Below, piece by piece: positions 4,793 to 57,341 of a stretch of DNA of 64,000 nt (position 1 is the stretch's first letter; each line of letters opens with the position of its first letter). The position numbers were made by a program, and so were the translations under genes. The notes beneath the pieces are model-generated. The model made no database searches and was not told the DNA's origin. It saw nothing but the letters and a program-made list of their open reading frames with translations. This DNA is from a virus (lineage: Duplodnaviria > Heunggongvirae > Uroviricota > Caudoviricetes): the IMG/VR virus record IMGVR_UViG_2778261035_000005; one strand, given 5' to 3'.

Positions 4793-4826
4793 TAATGTGC
4801 AAGTGGTAATTAGTCGACCGTACGAC

Positions 4827-4856
4827 AGCCCCGCCATCCTTACGGGGCTTTTTTGT
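4827..4856 (+). terminator. rho-independent terminator
   Basis: agccccg...cggggct hairpin followed by TTTTTT. Confidence 0.65.
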
Positions 4857-4918
4857 ATTGTAAGTACATACTTACGATCATAGAATAGAAAAATAACCAA
4901 TACACTACGGAGAGTGAA

Positions 4919-5314
4919 ATGACCGTTAAACGCGAAAAACTGACAGTTGATGTTTACTATGCCTCTGAAACCGCCGAAGGTAAGAATGTGGCAAAAATTA
5001 CCGTTGTTACGTACAACACCGAAACTGGTGCCGAAGTCCAGGCCAGTACGATCGTGCGTAAAGGTGATGCCTCCGGCGGCGAGTACGCGACTCAATACCA
5101 GTCCATTCTCGATGCAACTGACCCGCTGCTGCTGAAAATCGAGAACTACTTCCGCCAGGTTGATGAAGAGGTGTTTGAAACCATGATGAATATGGTTAAC
5201 ACCGTATTCGCCTCCAGCCTGAATACCAACACTACCTGGATTGGTCAGTACGGCCTGCGCATTACCTCTGGCATTCCTGCCGACACCTTAATCCCTGAAA
5301 GCGTATTCGCTTAA
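4919..5314 (+). CDS. hypothetical protein (131 aa)
   Basis: ORF with RBS (ggagag) upstream and terminator downstream. Confidence 0.55.
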   Translation: MTVKREKLTVDVYYASETAEGKNVAKITVVTYNTETGAEVQASTIVRKGDASGGEYATQYQSILDATDPLLLKIENYFRQVDEEVFETMMNMVNTVFASSLNTNTTWIGQYGLRITSGIPADTLIPESVFA

Positions 5315-5323
5315 TCCTCTTTA

Positions 5324-5350
5324 AATGGCGCGTAAACCGCGCCATTTTAT
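5324..5350 (+). terminator. rho-independent terminator
   Basis: aatggcgcg-taaac-cgcgccatt hairpin then TTAT. Confidence 0.6.
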
Positions 5351-5357
5351 TATGCCC

Positions 5358-5380
5358 GATAACAATTTGTTTTCTGCCTT
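5358..5380 (+). promoter_or_regulatory. operator palindrome (AACAATTTGTTTTCTGCCTT variant, as at 1122)
   Basis: gataacaatttgttttctgcctt matches 1120-1141 nearly base for base. Confidence 0.5.
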
Positions 5381-5431
5381 ATCTGATTTGTGAAAATGAT
5401 TTCACTGAAGCAACTTAATAAGGAAACCATC

Positions 5432-5806
5432 ATGGGACTTGATATCTATATCGAGACGCAGCCTAAAAACGATCTGAATAACGAGGCATCCAGAAAGCAG
5501 GTTGCTTACTTCCGTAAGTTCAATGCGCTCGTTGGGTGGATGGAGCGCAACGTAGGTGAAGTCGAAAATTGTGAGCTTTTAGAATTAACGATGAATGACA
5601 TTTGCCTTCTGAAAGCTCATTTGATGCACATAAACGAAAGCAATTGCGAAGAGTACTTGCCTACCCGGGAAGGTTTTTTCTTCGGCAGTCAGGAGTACGA
5701 CGAAGGTTACTGGCATGATGTGGGGGAGTTGAAAGAGCTTGTGGAAGATCTGATTAAGAACCACGACTTTCACAATAATAGACTGACCTTCTGCGCCTGG
5801 TGGTAA
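5432..5806 (+). CDS. hypothetical acidic protein (125 aa)
   Basis: ORF; ATG 5432 has aaggaa RBS, upstream GTG/ATG candidates do not. Confidence 0.5.
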   Translation: MGLDIYIETQPKNDLNNEASRKQVAYFRKFNALVGWMERNVGEVENCELLELTMNDICLLKAHLMHINESNCEEYLPTREGFFFGSQEYDEGYWHDVGELKELVEDLIKNHDFHNNRLTFCAWW

Positions 5807-5808
5807 AT

Positions 5809-5952
5809 ATGGGCGATTTCAAGAAACGCCTGAAGGAGAGAGCCGAGATGGTCAGAAAGCGAAACGCCTCTTCTGTCATCAGATACGCAAGGCAGTTTAG
5901 TCGCAACAACAAATCAGTTGAGGAAAAGATCCTTAGCGTAATCGGGCGATAA
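5809..5952 (+). CDS. possible small basic peptide (47 aa), translationally coupled
   Basis: ATG overlaps stop context of previous gene; ends just before terminator hairpin; below ORF-track size cut-off. Confidence 0.3.
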   Translation: MGDFKKRLKERAEMVRKRNASSVIRYARQFSRNNKSVEEKILSVIGR

Positions 5953-5956
5953 TTAT

Positions 5957-38142: not shown

Positions 38143-41100
38143 ATGTGGTACAGGGAAGGTACTATCACATTTACACAGGGTAGCAATACCCTCGTTGGTG
38201 TTGGAACAGCCTGGAACGTAACAGCTAATGGTGTGTTGCCGGGCATGATCGTCATTGGCCCCGACAATAAGCTGTATGAGATCAAGCGCGTAACCAGTGA
38301 TACAAACATTGTTCTCTCAGAACCTTATACCGGCGAAACTCAGTCTGAAGTTCCGTGCCGAATCATTACGACCTATGAAGGTGACTTAACGCAGTTTAGC
38401 GCGCGCTTTACTGCACTAATGTCGCGTATGTCGGCTGATTCCAAGTCTATGCGCAGTTGGTTGACTGCTCTTGATGAGGTGACAATCGAGCGTGAAGACG
38501 GTACAGAAGTGACCGTTAAGCCGCTAATGCAGATCGTCAACGAGCACAACGAAAACGTTGAGTGGTATAAAAATAACACTGACGCGATTGATGCTGCTGG
38601 CGACAAAGCTCGTGAGGCGGCGGCCAGTGCTGCCGCAGCGGCAGAAAGCGCCAATACCGCTGGAGAAAAAGCATCTCAAGCGTCTCAAAGTGCATCCGCT
38701 GCGGCATCCTCACAAAGTGCTGCAAGTGCGAGTGCAACTGCTGCGAAAAGATCTGAAACGAACGCAGAGGCCGCCAAAGAAGCGGCAGCAGAATCAGCGT
38801 CTGTAGCATCGACCAAAGCATCGGAGGCTGCAATATCTGCGTCCAGTGCCTCTGCATCTAAGGATGCAGCCAAAGCATCAGAGACTAACGCTTCATCGAG
38901 TGCAAACGCGGCTGCATCATCGGCAACAGAAGCTGCAAATTCCTCTAAGGCAGCAAAAACGTCAGAGGCAAACGCAAAAGCATCTGAAACGGCAGCCGAA
39001 CAGAGTGCATCGTCTGCAAACAGTTCGAAATCTGCGGCAGAAGCGTCAGCAAGTGCAGCCTCAGCAAGTGCGGATAGTGCTTCATCAAGTGCAACAGCGG
39101 CAGGAAAATCTGCGGATAGCGCATTGTCATCCGCGACAACAGCTACCACAAAAGCGACAGAGGCGACGAGTCAGGCTACAGCTGCTAAAAATTCAGCATC
39201 GGCAGCAAAAACCTCTGAAACAAATGCAAAGACCTCAGAAGACAATGCTGCTTCCTCTAAGGCGGCAGCTGCTGAATCTGCAAGTTCTGCGTCTGCATCA
39301 GCCACCTCAGCATCCGCTTCAAAAGATGAGGCGACCAAGCAGGCATCAGCAGCGAAGAGCAGTGCTTCAACGGCATCCACGAAGGCAACAGAGGCGGCAG
39401 GCAGTGCGACAGCTGCATCTCAGAGCAAAACTGCTGCTGAATCCGCTGCGACCCGTGCGGAAGCTGCCGCTGATCGTGCTGAAGAGATTGCCGGTGCAGT
39501 TGCGATGGAAGACGCAAGCCTTACCACCAAAGGTGTTGTGAAACTTAGCAGTGCTGTCGACAGCACCAGTGAATCGCTGGCCGCAACGCCAAAAGCAGTT
39601 AAAGCAGCCAATGACAATGCGAATAGCAGGGTGCCATCTAACCGAAAAGTTAACGGTAAAGCACTGACTGCGGATATCACATTAACGCCGAAAGATATTG
39701 GTACTTTAAATTCAGTAACGATGTCTTTCTCTGGCGGGGCTGGGTGGTTCAAACTGGCTACGGTTACCATGCCACAAGCGAGTTCCATCGTTTACATCGC
39801 ATTGATTGGTGGCGCTGGTTACAACGTCGGCTCCCCACATCAGGCAGGCATTTCAGAACTGGTTCTACGAGCAGGCAATGGAAACCCCAAAGGGATTACA
39901 GGTGCTTTGTGGAAGCGTACAGCTGTCGGATTAACGAATTTCGCCTGGATCAACACATCCGGCGATACATATGATATTTACGTTGAGATTGGCAATTATG
40001 CGACGAGTGTAAATATCCATTGGGATTGTACTGCAAATGCGACAGTTTCTATTTATACATCGCCAACATATTCAGCGAGTAAGCCTTCCAGCGTTACCGA
40101 TGGTGTTGTTTATACGATGTATAGCACACATCAGAAACCGACGCCGTTAGATATTGGTGCACTGCCAACAACCGGAGGAACAGTTTCAGGTCCGTTGTCT
40201 GTTACTGGTGGGATCACCGGAACATTAAATGGTAATGCAAGTACAGCAACGAAATTACAGACGGCAAGATCTATCGGTGGAGTTGGTTTCGACGGTTCTG
40301 CCAATATTAATCTTCCAGGTGTAAACACTACGGGTAATCAGAACACCACTGGTAATGCCGCAACTGCTACAAAACTACAGACGGCAAGAACTATCGGCGG
40401 CGTGAGCTTTGATGGTACTGCAAATATTAATTTGCCAGGTGTTAATACGACTGGTAATCAGAATACAACAGGTAATGCGGCTACTGCTACGAAGTTGCAG
40501 ACTGCGCGTACTATTAATGGGGTGTCGTTTGACGGTTCGGCAAATATTTCCTTGTCACCAGCAAATATAGGTTGCCCAGCATCTCCTACTGGTTGGTTAA
40601 CTACAGGAAGTAATGGCGGAGCAATAACAACAGCCCAGTTAGTGACGTTATTGCAAAATAATGGAGCCTTTAACACAAAGTCATGGATTGCTCGATGTGC
40701 GTGGGCCTATGCCAATAGTGCAACCATACCAAATAGTGAAACTGGTTGTGGCGTTATTCCATTGGCAGGAGCTGTTATAGAGGTATTTAATAACGGTAGT
40801 AGCTCAAACAATTATACGATCCGTATAACAACGGCCACAACGACGAGTGTCTCTGGTGCTCTCACTAATGCGGAGTTTATCTATGTATTTAATGGCACAG
40901 ATTATTCTCCAGGATGGCGAAGAGTATATAACACGAAAAACAAACCAACAGCCTCTGATGTCGGTGCATTACCTCTTACCGGTGGTACATTATCTGGAGG
41001 TTTGACATCTTCTGGCGAGATCATTTCAAAATATGCAAATGGTTTCCGCATTGCTTACGGTAGCTTTGGGTTCTTTATCCGTAATGATGGGTCGAACACA

Positions 41101-42171
41101 TATTTCATGCTAACAGCATCAGGAGACACATTAGGTTCATGGAACGGTTTGCGACCGATTACAATTAACAATACCAGCGGTGCTGTATCAATTGGTAATG
41201 GACTAAATGTGACTGGTGGCGTAAATGGTAGTTTGAACGGTAATGCTTCAACAGCTACGAAGTTGCAAACAGCGAGAAACATCAATGGTGTTAAGTTTGA
41301 TGGCTCAGGCGATATCAACATTAATACATTGGTATCTCGTGGCCGAGTTACGGCGTTAAGCGGTTCTGCTCAAGGTACTGCTGGCATTCAAATGTACGAG
41401 GCGTACAGCAATAGCTACCCGACCACGTATGGCAACGTATTGCACATGAAAGGTGCGAGTGCTGCTGGTGAGGGCGAGTTGCTTATTGGCTGGAGTGGTA
41501 CGAGCGGTGCACATGCGCCGGTTTTCATTCGCTCCCGAAGAGATACCACTGATGCGGCATGGTCAGCGTGGGCGCAGGTATATACCGCTAAGGATTCAAT
41601 ACCTGGTGTGAATACAACCGGTAATCAGAACACTACTGGTAATGCTGCCACCGCCACAAAATTGCAGACAGCAAGGAAAATTGCTGGTGTGGCGTTTGAT
41701 GGCTCTGCCGATATTACTTTGACTGCGGCTAACCTTAATGCCTATACGAAAACAGAGGTAACAAACCTTCTAAGTTCCTATGTGAAGAGCAGTGCTCTTC
41801 CAAGTATGACTGTGCGAACTTCCTCTGTTTCAGGTGGGGATATGGGCATGAGTTTGTCCACATTCATTAGCCACCTAAAATCAAATGGGGCGTTTAGCAA
41901 AAGTTATTGGATTGGCTTTGGCGATGCTATGGGATTCAATGCTGGCAGTATCAACAATATAACGGGATTTGGTGCTGTAGAATTAGCAGAATCTATAATC
42001 GAAGTTTTTAATCTACCTAACGGTGATTATACAATTCGTTTAACAACGTCACATAAAGCTGACTACGGTGGAGTTACAAACGCAATCCTCGTTTATCACT
42101 ACCGTAGTAATAGAAGTCCGTCAGGTCAATGGCTGAAATTTGCAGGTACTGTTGGGGCAACAAGTAACTGA
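38143..42171 (+). CDS. side tail fibre (lambda Stf-like)
   Basis: Ala/Ser-rich KTSETNAK-type repeats and repeated GNQNTTGNAATATKLQTAR...FDGSANINLPGVNTT motifs typical of Stf/long tail fibres. Confidence 0.8.
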   Translation: MWYREGTITFTQGSNTLVGVGTAWNVTANGVLPGMIVIGPDNKLYEIKRVTSDTNIVLSEPYTGETQSEVPCRIITTYEGDLTQFSARFTALMSRMSADSKSMRSWLTALDEVTIEREDGTEVTVKPLMQIVNEHNENVEWYKNNTDAIDAAGDKAREAAASAAAAAESANTAGEKASQASQSASAAASSQSAASASATAAKRSETNAEAAKEAAAESASVASTKASEAAISASSASASKDAAKASETNASSSANAAASSATEAANSSKAAKTSEANAKASETAAEQSASSANSSKSAAEASASAASASADSASSSATAAGKSADSALSSATTATTKATEATSQATAAKNSASAAKTSETNAKTSEDNAASSKAAAAESASSASASATSASASKDEATKQASAAKSSASTASTKATEAAGSATAASQSKTAAESAATRAEAAADRAEEIAGAVAMEDASLTTKGVVKLSSAVDSTSESLAATPKAVKAANDNANSRVPSNRKVNGKALTADITLTPKDIGTLNSVTMSFSGGAGWFKLATVTMPQASSIVYIALIGGAGYNVGSPHQAGISELVLRAGNGNPKGITGALWKRTAVGLTNFAWINTSGDTYDIYVEIGNYATSVNIHWDCTANATVSIYTSPTYSASKPSSVTDGVVYTMYSTHQKPTPLDIGALPTTGGTVSGPLSVTGGITGTLNGNASTATKLQTARSIGGVGFDGSANINLPGVNTTGNQNTTGNAATATKLQTARTIGGVSFDGTANINLPGVNTTGNQNTTGNAATATKLQTARTINGVSFDGSANISLSPANIGCPASPTGWLTTGSNGGAITTAQLVTLLQNNGAFNTKSWIARCAWAYANSATIPNSETGCGVIPLAGAVIEVFNNGSSSNNYTIRITTATTTSVSGALTNAEFIYVFNGTDYSPGWRRVYNTKNKPTASDVGALPLTGGTLSGGLTSSGEIISKYANGFRIAYGSFGFFIRNDGSNTYFMLTASGDTLGSWNGLRPITINNTSGAVSIGNGLNVTGGVNGSLNGNASTATKLQTARNINGVKFDGSGDININTLVSRGRVTALSGSAQGTAGIQMYEAYSNSYPTTYGNVLHMKGASAAGEGELLIGWSGTSGAHAPVFIRSRRDTTDAAWSAWAQVYTAKDSIPGVNTTGNQNTTGNAATATKLQTARKIAGVAFDGSADITLTAANLNAYTKTEVTNLLSSYVKSSALPSMTVRTSSVSGGDMGMSLSTFISHLKSNGAFSKSYWIGFGDAMGFNAGSINNITGFGAVELAESIIEVFNLPNGDYTIRLTTSHKADYGGVTNAILVYHYRSNRSPSGQWLKFAGTVGATSN

Positions 42172-42310: not shown

Positions 42311-42373
42311 TAATTGAAAGGAGAAGTGTGATATAAATCCGCCATCCCGATTTGACTTTTCATGGAGGAAAAC

Positions 42374-42697
42374 ATGTCGAACGAGATGGCGGGCGTTACA
42401 ACAGAGCAAGTTGAGCGTATAGCCGCGATCGTTGCTCGGGAGGTTGTTGGCAAATTAGGTAAAGAGCTACGTGAAGAAATTGGCCAGGAGGTCAATGATC
42501 AGCTGAAAACCTACTTTGGTGATATGACCCCGGCGCAACATAGTATTCAACACTCCAATCTGGACAAACTCCTTAACCGGTTAGATTCCATCTCAAGTGG
42601 GTTCTTTGGCGGCATTGTTTCTAAAATAACGTCGTTCATTATTACCGCACTGCTTTTGGGGTTAGCCGCGTATGGCGTAAAAAGTGGACTGCAATAA
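42374..42697 (+). CDS. holin candidate (small protein with C-terminal TM helix)
   Basis: ggagg RBS before ATG 42374; hydrophobic ITSFIITALLLGLAAYGV; first gene of lysis cassette. Confidence 0.4.
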   Translation: MSNEMAGVTTEQVERIAAIVAREVVGKLGKELREEIGQEVNDQLKTYFGDMTPAQHSIQHSNLDKLLNRLDSISSGFFGGIVSKITSFIITALLLGLAAYGVKSGLQ

Positions 42698-42710
42698 CAG
42701 GAGATCAAGG

Positions 42711-43403
42711 ATGAAGACTCCGAGAGGCATTCGTAATAATAACCCCGGTAATCTTGATAAAGGATCACCGTGGCAAGGTCTGGTTGCGAATCCAGACGAA
42801 CCGCGCTTTTGCACGTTTAAAGACCCTGTTTGGGGGATTCGTGCGCTGGCGGTGACTCTAATTACCTACCACGATAAACGTCGCGCAAAAGACGGCACAA
42901 GTATCGATACCATTCGTGAAGTTATTGAACGCTGGGCACCGCCGAATGAAAACAATACTGACGCCTACATTAATGAGGTTTCTAAAGCCGTTGGTGTAAC
43001 CGCAGACATGATCATCGATCTGCATGATTACGACATCCTTCGACCTTTGGTTGAGGCAATCATTCGCCACGAGAATGGCCGAGGCCCGCTAAAAACGCTG
43101 AACACCTGGTATGCGGCAGAAGTTATTGAGGAAGGTCTGCGTCGAGCTGGCGTTGTTAAGCCGGTGAAAACCGTGAAGGCTGTTCCTGTAACTAAAGAAA
43201 CCGCAGGCGCAACTGTTACAGCAGGTATTGGTCTGGCGCAGCTGGCCGATGTTATGCCGCAGGTTTCCGCTGCTATGGATAAAGCACAAGGTCATATCTC
43301 TAGCGGGGATACAGTACGCATCATCTTCGGTATTGCCACTATTGTTGTGGCAGGATTCATTGCCTGGTCGCAGGTAAGAAAACATCAGAAAGGGATGGTC
43401 TAA
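42711..43403 (+). CDS. endolysin candidate with C-terminal membrane anchor (family not recognised)
   Basis: Position holin-X-Rz-Rz1; caggag RBS before ATG 42711; C-terminal hydrophobic helix. Confidence 0.35.
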   Translation: MKTPRGIRNNNPGNLDKGSPWQGLVANPDEPRFCTFKDPVWGIRALAVTLITYHDKRRAKDGTSIDTIREVIERWAPPNENNTDAYINEVSKAVGVTADMIIDLHDYDILRPLVEAIIRHENGRGPLKTLNTWYAAEVIEEGLRRAGVVKPVKTVKAVPVTKETAGATVTAGIGLAQLADVMPQVSAAMDKAQGHISSGDTVRIIFGIATIVVAGFIAWSQVRKHQKGMV

Positions 43404-43404
43404 T

Positions 43405-43656
43405 ATGCTAGGCAGCCTGATGACAAAGCTAAAAGTTGCTTTGATTACGCTGGCTGCCGTTCTTTTCGTTCTTGTCGGCGCTTACACGATGGGCGGGAAT
43501 GCGGCGCGACGAGCAATGGAAGAGAAGGCAAAACAGGAAGACAGAAAACGACTTCAAAGCACAGTGGAAGTGGTGAATGAGACGAGCAATAAAATACGTC
43601 AGAAAGATGCTTCTGCCGTTCATCGTGAGTTGTATGATAAGTGGGTGCGTCATTAA
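43405..43656 (+). CDS. i-spanin (Rz-like)
   Basis: N-terminal TM helix then charged coiled-coil-like segment; 83 aa. Confidence 0.6.
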   Translation: MLGSLMTKLKVALITLAAVLFVLVGAYTMGGNAARRAMEEKAKQEDRKRLQSTVEVVNETSNKIRQKDASAVHRELYDKWVRH

Positions 43657-43792
43657 ACCACAAACCGCCAGCGTATTGTTCTGCGATGGAGCTGGGCCTA
43701 TCTATATCAGCAATAATGATGTGATGACCGAAGAAACCGAACGCCAAATCCTTTTTCACAATACGATGGGAGAGAGAGTTTGCGGTTGGTGA
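43607..43792 (+). CDS. o-spanin (Rz1-like lipoprotein), overlapping Rz out of frame
   Basis: Lipobox MISGC; starts inside Rz in another frame and extends beyond it. Confidence 0.55.
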   Translation: MLLPFIVSCMISGCVIKPQTASVLFCDGAGPIYISNNDVMTEETERQILFHNTMGERVCGW

Positions 43793-43799
43793 TGCGAAG

Positions 43800-43817
43800 T
43801 TCCCCTCACTTGAGGGG
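43800..43817. terminator. bidirectional terminator between lysis genes and toxin gene
   Basis: cccctcacttgagggg hairpin. Confidence 0.55.
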
Positions 43818-43823
43818 AGTACA

Positions 43824-44345
43824 TTATTCTTCGAACAATTTTTCGATAGATTTTGTAGGATAGAACAAAGAACGCTCGTTGTTACCAACCAGCTGGATAA
43901 AGCCTAAACTTTTATAAAACGCCTTGGCTTTGTCATTTAACGCCTCAACGAAAAGTCCATGAATGCCTACAGCAAGAGATGCATTGTACACAACGCGCAT
44001 TGCATGTGTTACAAGCATTGAGCCAAATCCTTGACCTTGAAGGGACTTGTCCAAAGCCAGCCTACCCAAAGTAACACTTGGAACATTCCGATAAGGTACC
44101 TTCTTTTGCTGGCTTCTTGAAGGTAAGGACTCCTTTTCAAAGCAGCTACCTGACAAAGTGTAATACCCTAACACTTTTGGTCTGCCTTCTTTCGTGCAAA
44201 GCACATAAGCGCGAAGAATTTTTCCCTCATGCTGCCTTTTTAAGTGGTTGGTTAAAAAGGCATTTAGTGATTCTTCACCGCAATCAAAACCATTCAAATC
44301 ATAATCTTTCTCTCCAGAGAAAATTTCTATCTTTATATTATCCAC
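43824..44345 (-). CDS. GNAT-family acetyltransferase toxin (TacT/AtaT-like)
   Basis: GNAT motif GRLALDKSLQGQGFGSMLV; immediately downstream of DUF1778-type antitoxin. Confidence 0.75.
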   Translation of the reverse strand: MDNIKIEIFSGEKDYDLNGFDCGEESLNAFLTNHLKRQHEGKILRAYVLCTKEGRPKVLGYYTLSGSCFEKESLPSRSQQKKVPYRNVPSVTLGRLALDKSLQGQGFGSMLVTHAMRVVYNASLAVGIHGLFVEALNDKAKAFYKSLGFIQLVGNNERSLFYPTKSIEKLFEE

Positions 44346-44352
44346 GAGTAAA

Positions 44353-44622
44353 CTACTCCATGCTTTTCAGACGATCAGCAGCTCGTTTCAGCTTGTCGTT
44401 CGGTGCCGGAGGATTGCTTATAGCGTCCATAACCAGATTCCAGGATTCTTCATTCAGAACTAGTCTACGGTGTTGCTCTATAACTTTCACGGCACGTTCA
44501 GATGCACTGCTAACCATAAACTGAGTAATGCTCTGGTTAGACATTGCGGCAGCTTCCTCGATGATGCTTTTATCGTCATCGGTTAATCTCAAATCGATGC
44601 GCTGCTTTTTTAGTGCTGACAT
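44353..44622 (-). CDS. DUF1778/RHH antitoxin (TacA/AtaR-like)
   Basis: MSALKKQRIDLRLTDDDKSIIEEAA... characteristic N-terminus; antitoxin-first order. Confidence 0.75.
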   Translation of the reverse strand: MSALKKQRIDLRLTDDDKSIIEEAAAMSNQSITQFMVSSASERAVKVIEQHRRLVLNEESWNLVMDAISNPPAPNDKLKRAADRLKSME

Positions 44623-44890
44623 GTATTCCTCCTGATGGCCGTGATGTAGGAAGGCCATCAATCTCCTCTGTTCAAACTGAGTTTTCGACTCAAAAATTAC
44701 TTTAAAAGGCTATAGCCCATTACGTGTGCATTATCAAATTGTGTACGGCATATCACCGTACTTGTAATATAGAGGTCATTGTTACTTTTTTCAACAGACA
44801 AATACAAGCTATGATTGCCAATTGTTAATCACAACCTACCATTTAACCTTTACACCGCAGCCGTAGGCATTTAGGCTATATCACATATAA

Positions 44891-44906
44891 GAAAACAAGT
44901 TGTTTC
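44891..44906 (+). promoter_or_regulatory. operator palindrome GAAAACAAGTTGTTTC upstream of parA
   Basis: Same palindrome family as left arm. Confidence 0.5.
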
Positions 44907-44940
44907 AGACAATAATAATAGACGCAAAGGGAACTCTCCA

Positions 44941-45609
44941 ATGACCAAGATCTTTGTGGTTGGCGGCACAAAGGGCGGGCCTGGCAAATCCACCGTTGCC
45001 CAGCAAATTGCCGTTTGCCTGAAAGTCAAAAAGAAGAAGAAGGTTTATATCACTGATATAGATATTCAGCGCACGACAACAAGCTGGTGTGAAGACCGTC
45101 GACAGAACGAAGACCTTGAGCTGATTCCTTTTGCATACGTTCAGGATGACATCATTAAGCACCTAAAATCGCTTCAGGGTAGAGCTGAGTTTGTAGTGGT
45201 AGATGCTGGTGGCTTTGACTCCGAAATTCAGCGACAAGCGATGCTGATGGCCGACGTTATCATTATCCCGCTTCGTCCTAAGCGTCGTGATTTGAAATCT
45301 CTGCGTGACATCGATCCTATTATCGACAATGTTCGTAATGTAAACGATAAAGTGAAGGTCCGCGCGGTCATGAACCAGTGCCCGGCTTTGCCATCACAAG
45401 TGTCTCGCATTCTGGCGGCTAAAGAGATTGTCGAGACGTTTGGCATCGAGTCTGCGCCAGTCAATCTATATAACCGCAACGTCTACGATGATGCGGAAGA
45501 GTCTGGTCGTTCTATCTTTGAAATGACCGGTAGCGAGCGCGACAAAAAGGCGGAAGCCGAGTTTGAAGAATTTGTAGATTATCTGTTGAGTCTGGAGGAA
45601 GAAGAATAA
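44941..45609 (+). CDS. parA: ParA-family partition ATPase
   Basis: Deviant Walker A GGTKGGPGKST; 222 aa. Confidence 0.85.
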   Translation: MTKIFVVGGTKGGPGKSTVAQQIAVCLKVKKKKKVYITDIDIQRTTTSWCEDRRQNEDLELIPFAYVQDDIIKHLKSLQGRAEFVVVDAGGFDSEIQRQAMLMADVIIIPLRPKRRDLKSLRDIDPIIDNVRNVNDKVKVRAVMNQCPALPSQVSRILAAKEIVETFGIESAPVNLYNRNVYDDAEESGRSIFEMTGSERDKKAEAEFEEFVDYLLSLEEEE

Positions 45610-45968
45610 TGTCCATGAAAATGGGTGACCTAGCAAAGCGCAAAGAGCCTGATGCACCGGCCAAGAACACAACTCCTTTGCGCCAACCAGTCAGACCACA
45701 GGGACGCCCGACTCGTGGCAAAGAGAAAATTAAAAGCCGCACAATGTCACTGGAAGACGAATACTTCGAACTGCTGGAGATGATGAAGTTCATCCCTCGC
45801 TTCGAGAAATTCACCCGCTCTGATGTGATTCGTGCTGCTATTTTCCATCTTGCGGAGAAGACACCGCAGGAAATCGAGGACATCGTAAAGCTGAACGAGG
45901 CGATCACAGCTGCCGATGTCACGATGCGTACCGATGAAATTAAACGCGAGTTGATGAAGAAAGGTTAA
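45609..45968 (+). CDS. RHH centromere-binding protein (ParG-like)
   Basis: Basic disordered N-terminus + C-terminal RHH-like segment; ATGA overlap with parA. Confidence 0.55.
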   Translation: MSMKMGDLAKRKEPDAPAKNTTPLRQPVRPQGRPTRGKEKIKSRTMSLEDEYFELLEMMKFIPRFEKFTRSDVIRAAIFHLAEKTPQEIEDIVKLNEAITAADVTMRTDEIKRELMKKG

Positions 45969-46019: not shown

Positions 46020-46772
46020 ATGCATTCGTTAGTATTTGCATTTAAAAACATACTCAAGAATGTTATAAACATACTAGGGATGTTAAATATTTTTTTGTCT
46101 GTGAGGGTGAGGAGAAAAGATATAAAAGATAAATTAAAGGAACTTAACAAAGAAAAAGAACAATTAAAAAGCGAAGAAATTATTATTGATTTATACAAGA
46201 AAAAACTCGCATCTAGCAAGGGGAAAGCTAATGATAAAATCAAAGGAAAAATAATTCACTATATTATTGCTAGAGAGTTGGGGAATGATCCTGATAATGA
46301 AGATTTGCGACATAATCTTTTTACAAAGATAAAAGAATCAGAAGAACAGGTTGAAGTTCTGGTTCATCAAAGAGAAGTAAGTGAGCAGGCGAACAAAAAA
46401 GAAACGGTTGTCAATTTATTTTTATTGTATGAAAAAAATAAATTGTTTAAAGCTAAGGGGTTGGCTGTGTTTCTTATAGTTATAAACTTAATTATAGTTG
46501 CGACTCTCGATCTTCCAGCTTGGTCATTGATTATAAGTTTTTTTATTCTCTCTTTGATTATGTTGAAAGATCAGATACTTACTATTCGTGTCTCTAAAGG
46601 ATATTTTGGCACAAGTGCGTATGAAGCGGTTCAATTGCTTAAATTCATCAGAGAAAATTCAGACAAATTTGACTCAGATGATAATGACGGTAGCCCACGA
46701 CGGATATTGAATCCGAAGGGAACAACAAAAAAATCAGACAACCTATTCGATAAAGGGTGGCAAAATGTTTGA
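46020..46772 (+). CDS. AT-rich gene: membrane protein (about 250 aa)
   Basis: N-terminal TM, K/E-rich coiled-coil segment, two more TM helices; composition visibly more AT-rich than flanks. Confidence 0.55.
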   Translation: MHSLVFAFKNILKNVINILGMLNIFLSVRVRRKDIKDKLKELNKEKEQLKSEEIIIDLYKKKLASSKGKANDKIKGKIIHYIIARELGNDPDNEDLRHNLFTKIKESEEQVEVLVHQREVSEQANKKETVVNLFLLYEKNKLFKAKGLAVFLIVINLIIVATLDLPAWSLIISFFILSLIMLKDQILTIRVSKGYFGTSAYEAVQLLKFIRENSDKFDSDDNDGSPRRILNPKGTTKKSDNLFDKGWQNV

Positions 46773-47187
46773 CCTTGACGCCATCACTAAGTTCTTAAAT
46801 CAGTGTTTTGATCTACTTTTGCTCAAGCAGCCTTTAAGAACTGTTTTCGGAATACTGATTGGTTTCATTATTTTTGTTTTTGTTTACACGTTTAGGTTTG
46901 CGATAGCTCAAGATTTTTATGAAATAGATGGCGTGCATTACGCTGCATGTTTCGTCATCGGTGTTTTAGTTGTTCACACAAGAACATTTTTTGACGTTAT
47001 CAAGGGCACCGCAGTTGATGAAGAAATAGATAGTATGATCAGAGTTATTACGAAGCAGCCACACCTATCTAACCATCAAAAAAACATAATGATTGCTGAA
47101 ATACTTCAAAAAGAAATTGCAGCCATAAGTCAAAAGAGATTGGATAAAGTTGCACAAGAAATAACGGAGAAAAAGACAACTGATTAA
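46765..47187 (+). CDS. AT-rich gene: small membrane protein with two TM helices
   Basis: Overlaps stop of previous gene; hydrophobic segments LRTVFGILIGFIIFVFVYTF and VHYAACFVIGVLVV. Confidence 0.55.
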   Translation: MFDLDAITKFLNQCFDLLLLKQPLRTVFGILIGFIIFVFVYTFRFAIAQDFYEIDGVHYAACFVIGVLVVHTRTFFDVIKGTAVDEEIDSMIRVITKQPHLSNHQKNIMIAEILQKEIAAISQKRLDKVAQEITEKKTTD

Positions 47188-56888: not shown

Positions 56889-56963
56889 GATGGTGTAGCT
56901 CAGCGGTAGAGCAGTTGGCTGTTAACCAACTGGTCGGTGGTTCGAATCCACCCACCATCGCCA
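56889..56963 (+). tRNA. tRNA-Asn (anticodon GTT)
   Basis: Cloverleaf read by hand: acceptor gatggtg/caccatc, anticodon loop ctGTTaa, T-loop ggtggttcgaatccacc, 3' CCA. Confidence 0.85.
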
Positions 56964-56965
56964 AT

Positions 56966-57041
56966 GCCGGTTTAGCTCAGTTGGTAGAGCACCTGCCTTG
57001 TAAGCAGGATGTCAGCGGTTCGAATCCGTTAACCGGCACCA
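56966..57041 (+). tRNA. tRNA-Thr (anticodon TGT)
   Basis: acceptor gccggtt/aaccggc, anticodon stem cctgc/gcagg, loop ctTGTaa, T-loop ttcgaat, 3' CCA. Confidence 0.85.
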
Positions 57042-57254
57042 ACACAACAGGAAAGAGCATTGAGAACCGCCGAGACTGCCCTGTTTGAAGCGTAAGTCCG
57101 TGCAAACGTCATACAGTGCTCTTTTCGTTGTGGTGAATGCGGCTAAGCGCACGCGGGGAAATGGTTATATTGATCCTTTGTGATGACTATTGGCTCCGTC
57201 CACGGTGGATAACCAGCCAAAGGACACCGGGAAGCACCCGGCACCACAACAATT

Positions 57255-57341
57255 GGAGAGTAGGGAGCATGGTGCTCAAGCGGTCTTGAAAACCGTCCCA
57301 TTGCGCAAGCGATGATGGTTCGATTCCATTACTCTCCGCCA
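57255..57341 (+). tRNA. tRNA-Ser-like (anticodon TGA, long variable arm), D-arm atypical
   Basis: acceptor ggagagt/actctcc, anticodon loop ctTGAaa, variable-arm hairpin cattgc-gcaa-gcgatg, T-loop ggttcgattcc, 3' CCA. Confidence 0.6.

Follow-up and report, generated by a model that had tools for sequence, protein, structure and literature searches.

The DNA analysed here, a stretch of 64,000 nucleotides from the virus record IMGVR_UViG_2778261035_000005 (hereafter the window), belongs to an SSU5-like phage-plasmid of E. coli, and between its lysis and partition genes it carries a small operon pairing a ribbon-helix-helix protein of the DUF1778 family with a GNAT acetyltransferase. The question raised by this locus is whether the pair is a working toxin-antitoxin system and, if it is, what it does for the element that carries it. 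A sequence-only reading had assigned the pair to the tRNA-acetylating TacAT/AtaRT/KacAT type, located it between the lysis genes and ParA, and offered two roles, addiction in plasmid-like maintenance or phage defence. The family assignment is upheld at the sequence level by the protein domains, by 69-76% identity to AtaT and AtaR, by the conserved residues and by an operator palindrome, and the location is as described, with holin, endolysin, Rz and Rz1 on one side and parA on the other. We conclude that the pair is probably a functional type II operon of the AtaRT/KacAT group (clade A), carried as a ~1-kb cassette of the phage-plasmid and having a maintenance role. What the sequences show directly is the gene structure, residue-level family membership, operator and promoter architecture, cassette boundaries, plasmid-only location and purifying selection.

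Both open reading frames lie on the minus strand, with the same boundaries as in RefSeq NZ_AP022089.1, a record 100% identical to the window wherever the two were compared. The upstream gene (44353..44622) runs from an ATG to a TAG and encodes an 89-amino-acid DUF1778/TacA ribbon-helix-helix antitoxin of the AtaR/KacA type, and the downstream gene (43824..44345) starts with GTG and encodes a GNAT toxin of 173 amino acids, by homology an aminoacyl-tRNA N-acetyltransferase of the AtaT/KacT type. A gap of 7 nt separates the antitoxin TAG from the toxin GTG, giving a bicistronic, antitoxin-first arrangement on one strand. The antitoxin matched PF08681 (TacA1/DUF1778) over positions 1-79 of the 80-position profile (E = 5.7e-26; 90.7 bits, cut-off 21), and the toxin matched four GNAT Pfam models, all above their cut-offs, in agreement with the domains proposed earlier. 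When the two proteins were compared with PDB sequences using phmmer, the toxin aligned without gaps to AtaT over residues 1-172 (E = 8e-80) and also to KacT (E = 4e-75), the similarity to KacT being comparable to that to AtaT (255 versus 270 bits), and the antitoxin matched KacA (E = 7e-42) and AtaR (E = 1e-40). The toxin is 69% identical to AtaT; identity between the antitoxin and AtaR is 75% when the two are aligned globally as a pair and 76% in a multiple alignment. An AGGAGG Shine-Dalgarno sequence (44628..44633, minus strand) lies 5 nt upstream of the antitoxin ATG, and a GGAG Shine-Dalgarno-like element for the toxin (44356..44359, minus strand) lies within the last antitoxin codons, 10 nt upstream of the GTG (junction AGCATGGAGTAGTTTACTCGTG). 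A longer antitoxin reading frame, from TTG 44661 or ATG 44658 as annotated in the related Escherichia phage Cyrano (pLF82), was dropped, since all homologues and the solved proteins start with MSA(L/V)KK, preceded by AGGAGG.

The residues on which the family's chemistry depends are retained. In an alignment of this toxin with AtaT and two further alleles, with residue roles taken from the AtaT study (PMC7595197), the catalytic Y144 is conserved and the acetyl-CoA loop LQGQGFG (Q-G-Q-G-x-G, including G108) is invariant. The aminoacyl-pocket residues L27 and L136 are the same as in AtaT; Y144 has been assigned to catalysis in AtaT, G108 to acetyl-CoA and L27/L136 to the aminoacyl pocket (PMC7595197). 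Most of the tRNA path is likewise kept (F30, H34, R37, S76, S78, K81, K82, Y85, R95 and K165), and the differences from AtaT at tRNA- or substrate-contact positions are R40E, N41G, K79Q and A26S, together with the conservative changes R71K and K77R; position 79 is Q in the window and K in Cyrano. By its similarity to AtaT and KacT, the toxin falls in clade A of Bikmetov et al., whose members (AtaT, KacT, AcaT) acetylate Gly- and hydrophobic aminoacyl-tRNAs and are opposed by Pth (PMC9177977). The antitoxin keeps the DNA-reading residues R8, D10 and R12, and the stretch MSALKKQRIDLRL is identical across residues 5-13 in all aligned homologues. KacA cannot dispense with R8 or R12 in binding its operator, and the D10A mutation makes that binding weaker (PMC6698736). 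The toxin-contact residues M65 and I68 and the toxin-binding C-terminal region are also retained, and N70 and K77 match AtaR, while KacA has Q70 and R77.

Both genes are under purifying selection, which supports function indirectly: among four E. coli phage-plasmid alleles, the ratio of nonsynonymous to synonymous divergence (dN/dS) was 0.02-0.13 for the toxin and ~0.04 for the antitoxin, with synonymous divergence (dS) of up to 0.55. The GTG start of the toxin is conserved in the same four alleles and is the annotated start in the Enterobacter hormaechei phage-plasmid pEh22_1 and in pB-KP1118-1 of Klebsiella pneumoniae; the toxin of a second E. hormaechei element, pECL189-2, has an in-frame GTG at the homologous position and is annotated from a downstream ATG. 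By comparison, ataT and the toxins of pF41-type plasmids start with ATG. Pairing a weak start on the toxin with a strong one on the antitoxin is consistent with an excess of antitoxin.

Upstream of the antitoxin, a promoter scan predicted a sigma70-like promoter for the operon, with a -35 box TTGAAA (44789..44794, minus strand) and, after a 17-nt spacer, a -10 box TATATT (44766..44771, minus strand), giving 10/12 matches. Located 4 nt downstream of the -10 box is a perfect palindrome (44743..44761, minus strand) in which GTACGG and CCGTAC flank the 7-nt spacer tgatatg (GTACGGtgatatgCCGTAC). This predicted binding site for the antitoxin or its complex overlaps the expected transcription start and occurs once in the 64-kb window, against an expectation of 0.08. 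Its half-sites and 7-nt spacing equal those of the KacAT operator crystallised in 5ZGN, AAATGTACGGTTATTAACCGTACATGA (PMC6698736). The KacAT operator spans the transcription start, and the KacAT-DNA contacts at G5 and C8 (PMC6698736) fall on the half-site GTAC. We compared the operator region at 10 loci, namely four E. coli, two Enterobacter and one Klebsiella phage-plasmid, two conjugative-type plasmids and chromosomal ataRT. In 10/10 loci the half-sites were invariant, the spacer sequence was free to vary, and the order of -35 box, 17-nt spacer, -10 box and operator was kept. Such fixed half-sites around a variable spacer are characteristic of a site bound by protein.

The leader between operator and start codon (44623-44742) is 120 nt long, as against 26 nt in chromosomal ataRT, and ranges from 112 to 222 nt in the mobile-element copies. 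It contains a hairpin (44633..44660, minus strand) formed by TGATGGCC, a 12-nt loop and GGCCATCA, which abuts the antitoxin Shine-Dalgarno sequence. A hairpin of different sequence recurs at the equivalent position in pF41, p98191 and the Enterobacter alleles; in most mobile-element copies it ends 0-3 nt before the Shine-Dalgarno sequence, and its sequence is lineage-specific. In one allele (L009) a C-to-U change leaves the pairing intact through a G-U wobble. The folding energy was significant only for pF41 (z = -6.4) and p98191 (z = -2.4). The hairpin of the window is energetically unexceptional (z = -0.7) and remains a positional observation only, and its 161-nt leader folds no more stably than shuffled sequences (z = -0.25). 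An Rfam scan of 43700-45000 gave one sub-threshold match to a miRNA family and no known RNA element. Two further observations concern this region. The pEh22_1 leader carries a (CTGAAAA)n tandem repeat. The motif GGCTATA(G/T)C has exact copies in the window only at 44708-44717 and 44874-44882, both between the antitoxin and parA; the leader copy forms the palindrome GGGCTATAGCC, which is kept in the four E. coli alleles, the other copy lies near the parA promoter, and the Enterobacter loci have comparable motifs that include CTATAG. This pair of motifs may be a binding site for a partition protein, or may be due to chance.

The operon and its control region form a cassette. The backbone shared with SSU5, Klebsiella phage pJN2-26 and PhiR41_1 is recognisable up to 43774-43793 and again from 44831-44834, and these break points therefore define a self-contained insert of ~1.04 kb. 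The resulting cassette (43794..44830, minus strand) comprises a terminator hairpin, toxin, antitoxin, leader, operator and promoter, occupies the slot between Rz1 and the parA promoter region, and has a GC content of 41%, compared with 48% in its flanks. Over the 1.6 kb surrounding the pair, the window and the E. coli plasmid pWP4-S18-ESBL-07_2 (110 kb) are 100% identical, and the pair region is 97-99% identical in Escherichia phages CMS-2020a and Cyrano and in more than 100 non-mobilisable plasmids of ~105-115 kb. The Cyrano copy (97% identical) is annotated as a 'KacT acetyltransferase-type toxin' and a 'putative antitoxin', and Cyrano's CYRAN_26 and CYRAN_27 are morons transcribed in the lysogen at levels 35x and 60x above the prophage background (PMC9928086).

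On the far side of the cassette, parA (44941-45609) is divergent from the antitoxin, and a gene for a 119-amino-acid protein (45609-45968) follows it, its start codon overlapping the parA stop. This protein matches phrog_5111, a family of unknown function, along its full length. In Cyrano it is labelled a 'RelE/ParE putative toxin', a label that searches of Pfam, NCBIfam, the PDB and PADLOC did not support; its position makes a centromere-binding partner of ParA the likelier identity.

The same slot is filled differently in relatives. SSU5 and PhiR41_1 have two unrelated forward-strand genes there (phrog_2594 and phrog_3307), and pJN2-26 has a single reverse-strand gene (phrog_28020). These alternative occupants, found at 4797-5953 of locus L002, 4083-5258 of L006 and 2734-3291 of L005, gave no Pfam or PADLOC match. 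In SSU5-family phage-plasmids of Enterobacter and Klebsiella, divergent GNAT/DUF1778 pairs occupy the slot in the same orientation. Identity to the window was 63% for the toxin, 87% for the antitoxin, 88% for ParA and 95% for the endolysin in pEh22_1; the corresponding values were 61-62%, 88%, 88% and 95% in pECL189-2, and 51%, 66%, 73% and 80% in pB-KP1118-1. The Enterobacter toxins (of the pairs at 2222-3019 of L012 and L013) are thus far more divergent than their antitoxins or backbone, and are more distant from the toxin of the window than is chromosomal AtaT (69%). In a sliding-window comparison with the Enterobacter loci, nucleotide identity fell at the antitoxin/toxin junction. This discordant divergence suggests either that the toxin evolves faster or that its gene has been swapped within the operon. 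Among the known 'shell' genes of the SSU5 supercommunity are toxin-antitoxin systems (PMC7969092).

We next consider where the pair is found among hosts, using a census of 5,426 complete E. coli genomes in which a phage-plasmid allele was defined by at least 90% nucleotide identity. Such alleles were present in 152 genomes (2.8%), mostly on replicons of 105-115 kb; all 152 were on plasmids and 0 were chromosomal. A few copies lie on 252-, 214- and 324-kb records (H188, H189, H194), two to three times the usual size, which suggests cointegrates of the phage-plasmid with other plasmids. Chromosomal ataRT, at ~65.5% nucleotide identity, was found at 1,626 places, corresponding to ~30% of E. coli genomes, and a further 147 plasmid copies were of the pF41 type (~68% identical). 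Genomes with two loci numbered at most 71, versus ~90 expected if the loci were independent, on crude tool counts with no phylogenetic control. One of them, GCF_977065515.1, was verified to carry both chromosomal ataRT and the phage-plasmid module, the latter on a 106-kb plasmid. Because the operators and DNA-reading residues of the two systems are identical, transcriptional cross-talk with ataRT is plausible.

Comparison with characterised systems places the pair closest to AtaR-AtaT and KacA-KacT. It shares gene order and gene sizes with AtaR-AtaT of E. coli O157:H7 (PDB 6AJM, 6GTS), which is chromosomal between livJ and panM, as well as Y144, G108, the aminoacyl pocket, most tRNA-path residues, and an operator of GTACGG/CCGTAC with a 7-nt spacer directly after the -10 box. 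Unlike AtaR-AtaT, it is borne by a phage-plasmid and has a GTG toxin start, a 120-nt leader and the substitutions R40E, N41G, K79Q and A26S. With KacA-KacT of Klebsiella pneumoniae (PDB 5XUN, 5ZGN) it has antitoxin residues R8, D10, R12, M65 and I68 in common, and the operator half-sites match; KacAT differs in being chromosomal in Klebsiella and in having Q70 and R77 in KacA, where this antitoxin has N70 and K77. The nearest relatives on other plasmids are AtaRT-like pairs of conjugative or F-type plasmids (pF41_1, beside ccdAB, and p98191, beside repB), with toxins 70% and antitoxins 78-79% identical; they share the operator and promoter layout, a ~115-nt leader and a hairpin directly beside the Shine-Dalgarno sequence, and differ in their ATG toxin start, replicon type and neighbourhood. 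KacAT4 of Klebsiella plasmids (pKCTC2242 type), likened here by description, is also plasmid-borne and has a GUG toxin start in 369/370 copies (PMC9431474), but belongs to another clade and has a 14-bp gene overlap in place of the 7-nt gap.

For the proposed role, the functional model is GmvAT of the Shigella virulence plasmid pINV, a GNAT/ribbon-helix-helix pair on a large low-copy plasmid near other maintenance functions, which stabilises pINV and a test vector, largely in a Lon-dependent manner (PMC6519299). GmvAT differs in that GmvT belongs to the Gly-specific clade D (PMC9177977), its effect is temperature-dependent and it is no close sequence relative. The possibility that the pF41-type copy beside ccdAB is itself GmvAT was ruled out, since GmvT is of clade D and the pF41 group clusters with AtaT and KacT. 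The classical type II addiction module of a plasmid prophage is phd-doc of phage-plasmid P1 (PMC7969092), whose protein families, a Fic-type kinase toxin and the Phd antitoxin, are unrelated to those considered here.

From these systems we infer, for the present pair, toxicity, tRNA targets, the stoichiometry of the complex, antitoxin lability and a stabilising phenotype. The antitoxin would dimerise through its N-terminal ribbon-helix-helix, and its C-terminal region would wrap around the toxin, keeping it from binding acetyl-CoA and from dimerising. A complex of two toxins and four antitoxins on GTACGG-N7-CCGTAC would repress the operon, and toxin excess would lift the repression (conditional cooperativity). 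Free toxin dimers would acetylate the alpha-amino group of charged tRNAs, so that translation stops; the expected clade A targets are Gly-tRNA, tRNAs charged with hydrophobic and aromatic amino acids, and also Met-tRNAfMet. The GTG toxin start, set against ATG and AGGAGG on the antitoxin, would keep the antitoxin in excess. In lysogeny the pair would be expressed from the plasmid prophage and would form a maintenance block with the adjacent parAB. On loss of the element, the labile and probably Lon-sensitive antitoxin would be lost as well, leading to growth arrest (post-segregational arrest).

Stabilisation of the plasmid prophage is the most likely and best-supported role, as judged from the plasmid-only location, the adjacency to parAB, expression in the Cyrano lysogen and the GmvAT precedent. 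The addiction role suggested by the sequence-only reading has thus gained support, albeit by inference, whereas its alternative, a phage-defence moron, has found no positive evidence and no PADLOC match. Several considerations weigh against our main conclusion. For this orthologue, toxicity, targets and stabilisation are all drawn by analogy. The element has parAB, and Cyrano is present at ~5.5 copies per cell (PMC9928086), so that post-segregational arrest might add little. SSU5, PhiR41_1 and pJN2-26 do without the pair, which is therefore dispensable for the element. Three tRNA-contact positions differ from AtaT (R40E, N41G and K79Q), and the target preference may be shifted. A co-resident ataRT could blunt addiction if AtaR cross-neutralises the toxin. 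Lastly, the GTG start may yield sub-toxic levels of toxin, as for KacT4, which is non-toxic from its native GUG start and toxic when that is changed to AUG (PMC9431474). By the same precedent, a negative toxicity result from the native GTG would not overturn the assignment as a toxin.

Among the other roles considered, an anti-phage, abortive-infection moron survives best, and even this appears unlikely. Infection by a rival phage would shut off host transcription, the labile antitoxin would decay, the freed toxin would block translation, and the aborted infection would spare the lysogen population. In favour of this, the accessory slot that holds the pair is a variable one in a temperate phage, and lysogens express the pair; among type II toxin-antitoxin systems, and among toxins that target tRNA, many are described as defence effectors (PMC12409363, PMC11559606); and assorted defence systems occur on SSU5-group phage-plasmids (bioRxiv 10.1101/2025.09.12.675607). 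Yet neither toxin nor antitoxin matched PADLOC-DB at E <= 0.01, no defence family was matched by the slot's alternative occupants, and a search of the literature library brought up no GNAT/DUF1778 pair described as acting against phages. The adjacency to parAB and the plasmid-only location are better explained by maintenance.

Quite unlikely, in our judgement, is that the operon is an attenuated regulator or anti-addiction module, in which the GTG start yields sub-toxic toxin and the antitoxin, by way of the common operator and a similar toxin-binding tail, represses or neutralises chromosomal ataRT or the AtaRT-type modules of competing plasmids. The conservation of GTG in the examined phage-plasmid alleles, set against ATG in ataT and the pF41 toxin, would be accounted for in this way, and KacT4 provides a precedent (PMC9431474); operator half-sites and antitoxin residues R8, D10 and R12 identical to those of ataRT, co-residence with ataRT in GCF_977065515.1, and the better conservation of the antitoxin (87-88%) than of the toxin (61-63%) between E. 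coli and Enterobacter phage-plasmids point the same way. However, a partner that could be dispensed with would not be expected to show this toxin's strong purifying selection and intact catalytic residues, giving the toxin a weaker start codon is an ordinary means of adjusting the toxin:antitoxin ratio, and TacAT paralogues do not cross-neutralise one another (work cited in PMC9431474).

That the pair benefits the host as a stress or persistence module, with stochastic or stress-triggered toxin giving antibiotic- or macrophage-tolerant lysogens as proposed for TacT and KacT, is very improbable. KacT and TacT have been linked to drug tolerance (PMC6698736, PMC9431474), and the module is expressed in the pathogenic strain LF82 (PMC9928086), but no sequence feature is specific to such a role, an over-expression phenotype does not establish a physiological one, and the cassette is confined to a mobile element. 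It is hardly credible that the GNAT protein is no toxin and acetylates a small molecule, an antibiotic or a protein lysine, with the ribbon-helix-helix protein acting as a transcription factor only, for although the GNAT superfamily is very broad and acetylation of a lysine in the protein EspB by AtaT has been reported (PMC7957018), the toxin has 69% full-length identity to AtaT and conserved tRNA-path residues, and the antitoxin keeps its toxin-binding C-terminal region.

Other features of the window were recorded alongside the cassette. The genes for holin, endolysin, Rz and Rz1 (42362-43792, plus strand) converge on the toxin, and a terminator scan placed a GC-rich hairpin, GTTCCCCTCACTTGAGGGGAGT (43799..43820, plus strand), between the stop codons of the converging Rz1 and toxin genes; it resembles a terminator of the lysis operon, and on the minus strand it has no U-tract. 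Upstream of the lysis genes, a tail-fibre protein of 1,342 amino acids (38143-42171), annotated in Cyrano as a P1 S tail fibre homologue, has a long Ala/Ser-rich, low-complexity N-terminal half and several repeats of the GVNTTGNQNTTGNAATATKLQTAR motif. Directly after parAB is an AT-rich block of two genes (46020-47187; 29-37% GC versus 46% for the window) encoding apparently membrane proteins of 250 and 140 amino acids, with no Pfam match and marginal PADLOC matches. SSU5 homology ends at ~45970, and the Enterobacter relatives have a DUF2971 gene at this place, so that the block looks like a second variable accessory slot. Three tRNA genes, Asn-GTT, Thr-TGT and Ser-TGA, lie at 56889-57341; Asn-tRNA is acetylated only weakly by AtaT (PMC7595197).

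Taken as a whole, the pair is a typical and already annotated member of the well-studied tRNA-acetylating AtaRT/KacAT family, and little about it is new: the family has been characterised structurally and biochemically, the genes are named in hundreds of RefSeq records, and a publication describes the Cyrano copy as a KacT-type toxin-antitoxin moron. What is added here is modest, and consists of the exact operator, the boundaries of the cassette, the conserved GTG start, the conservation of the slot across genera with a fast-diverging toxin, and the operator shared with chromosomal ataRT. A broader reading, which we regard as doubtful, would make the parA-adjacent slot a long-standing GNAT/DUF1778 position of the SSU5 supergroup, with a fast-evolving toxin and fixed operator and DNA-reading residues, serving allele-specific addiction or exclusion among phage-plasmids and wired into the host ataRT through the shared operator. 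If this were true, the phage-plasmid antitoxin would silence chromosomal ataRT, or chromosomal AtaR would act as an anti-addiction factor. In either event, a phage-plasmid module and a chromosomal homologue with identical operator half-sites form a natural system for cross-regulation and anti-addiction. Phage-plasmids of the SSU5-like kind are often found in clinical E. coli, Shigella and Salmonella, and a maintenance cassette would help to explain their persistence and would hinder their curing.

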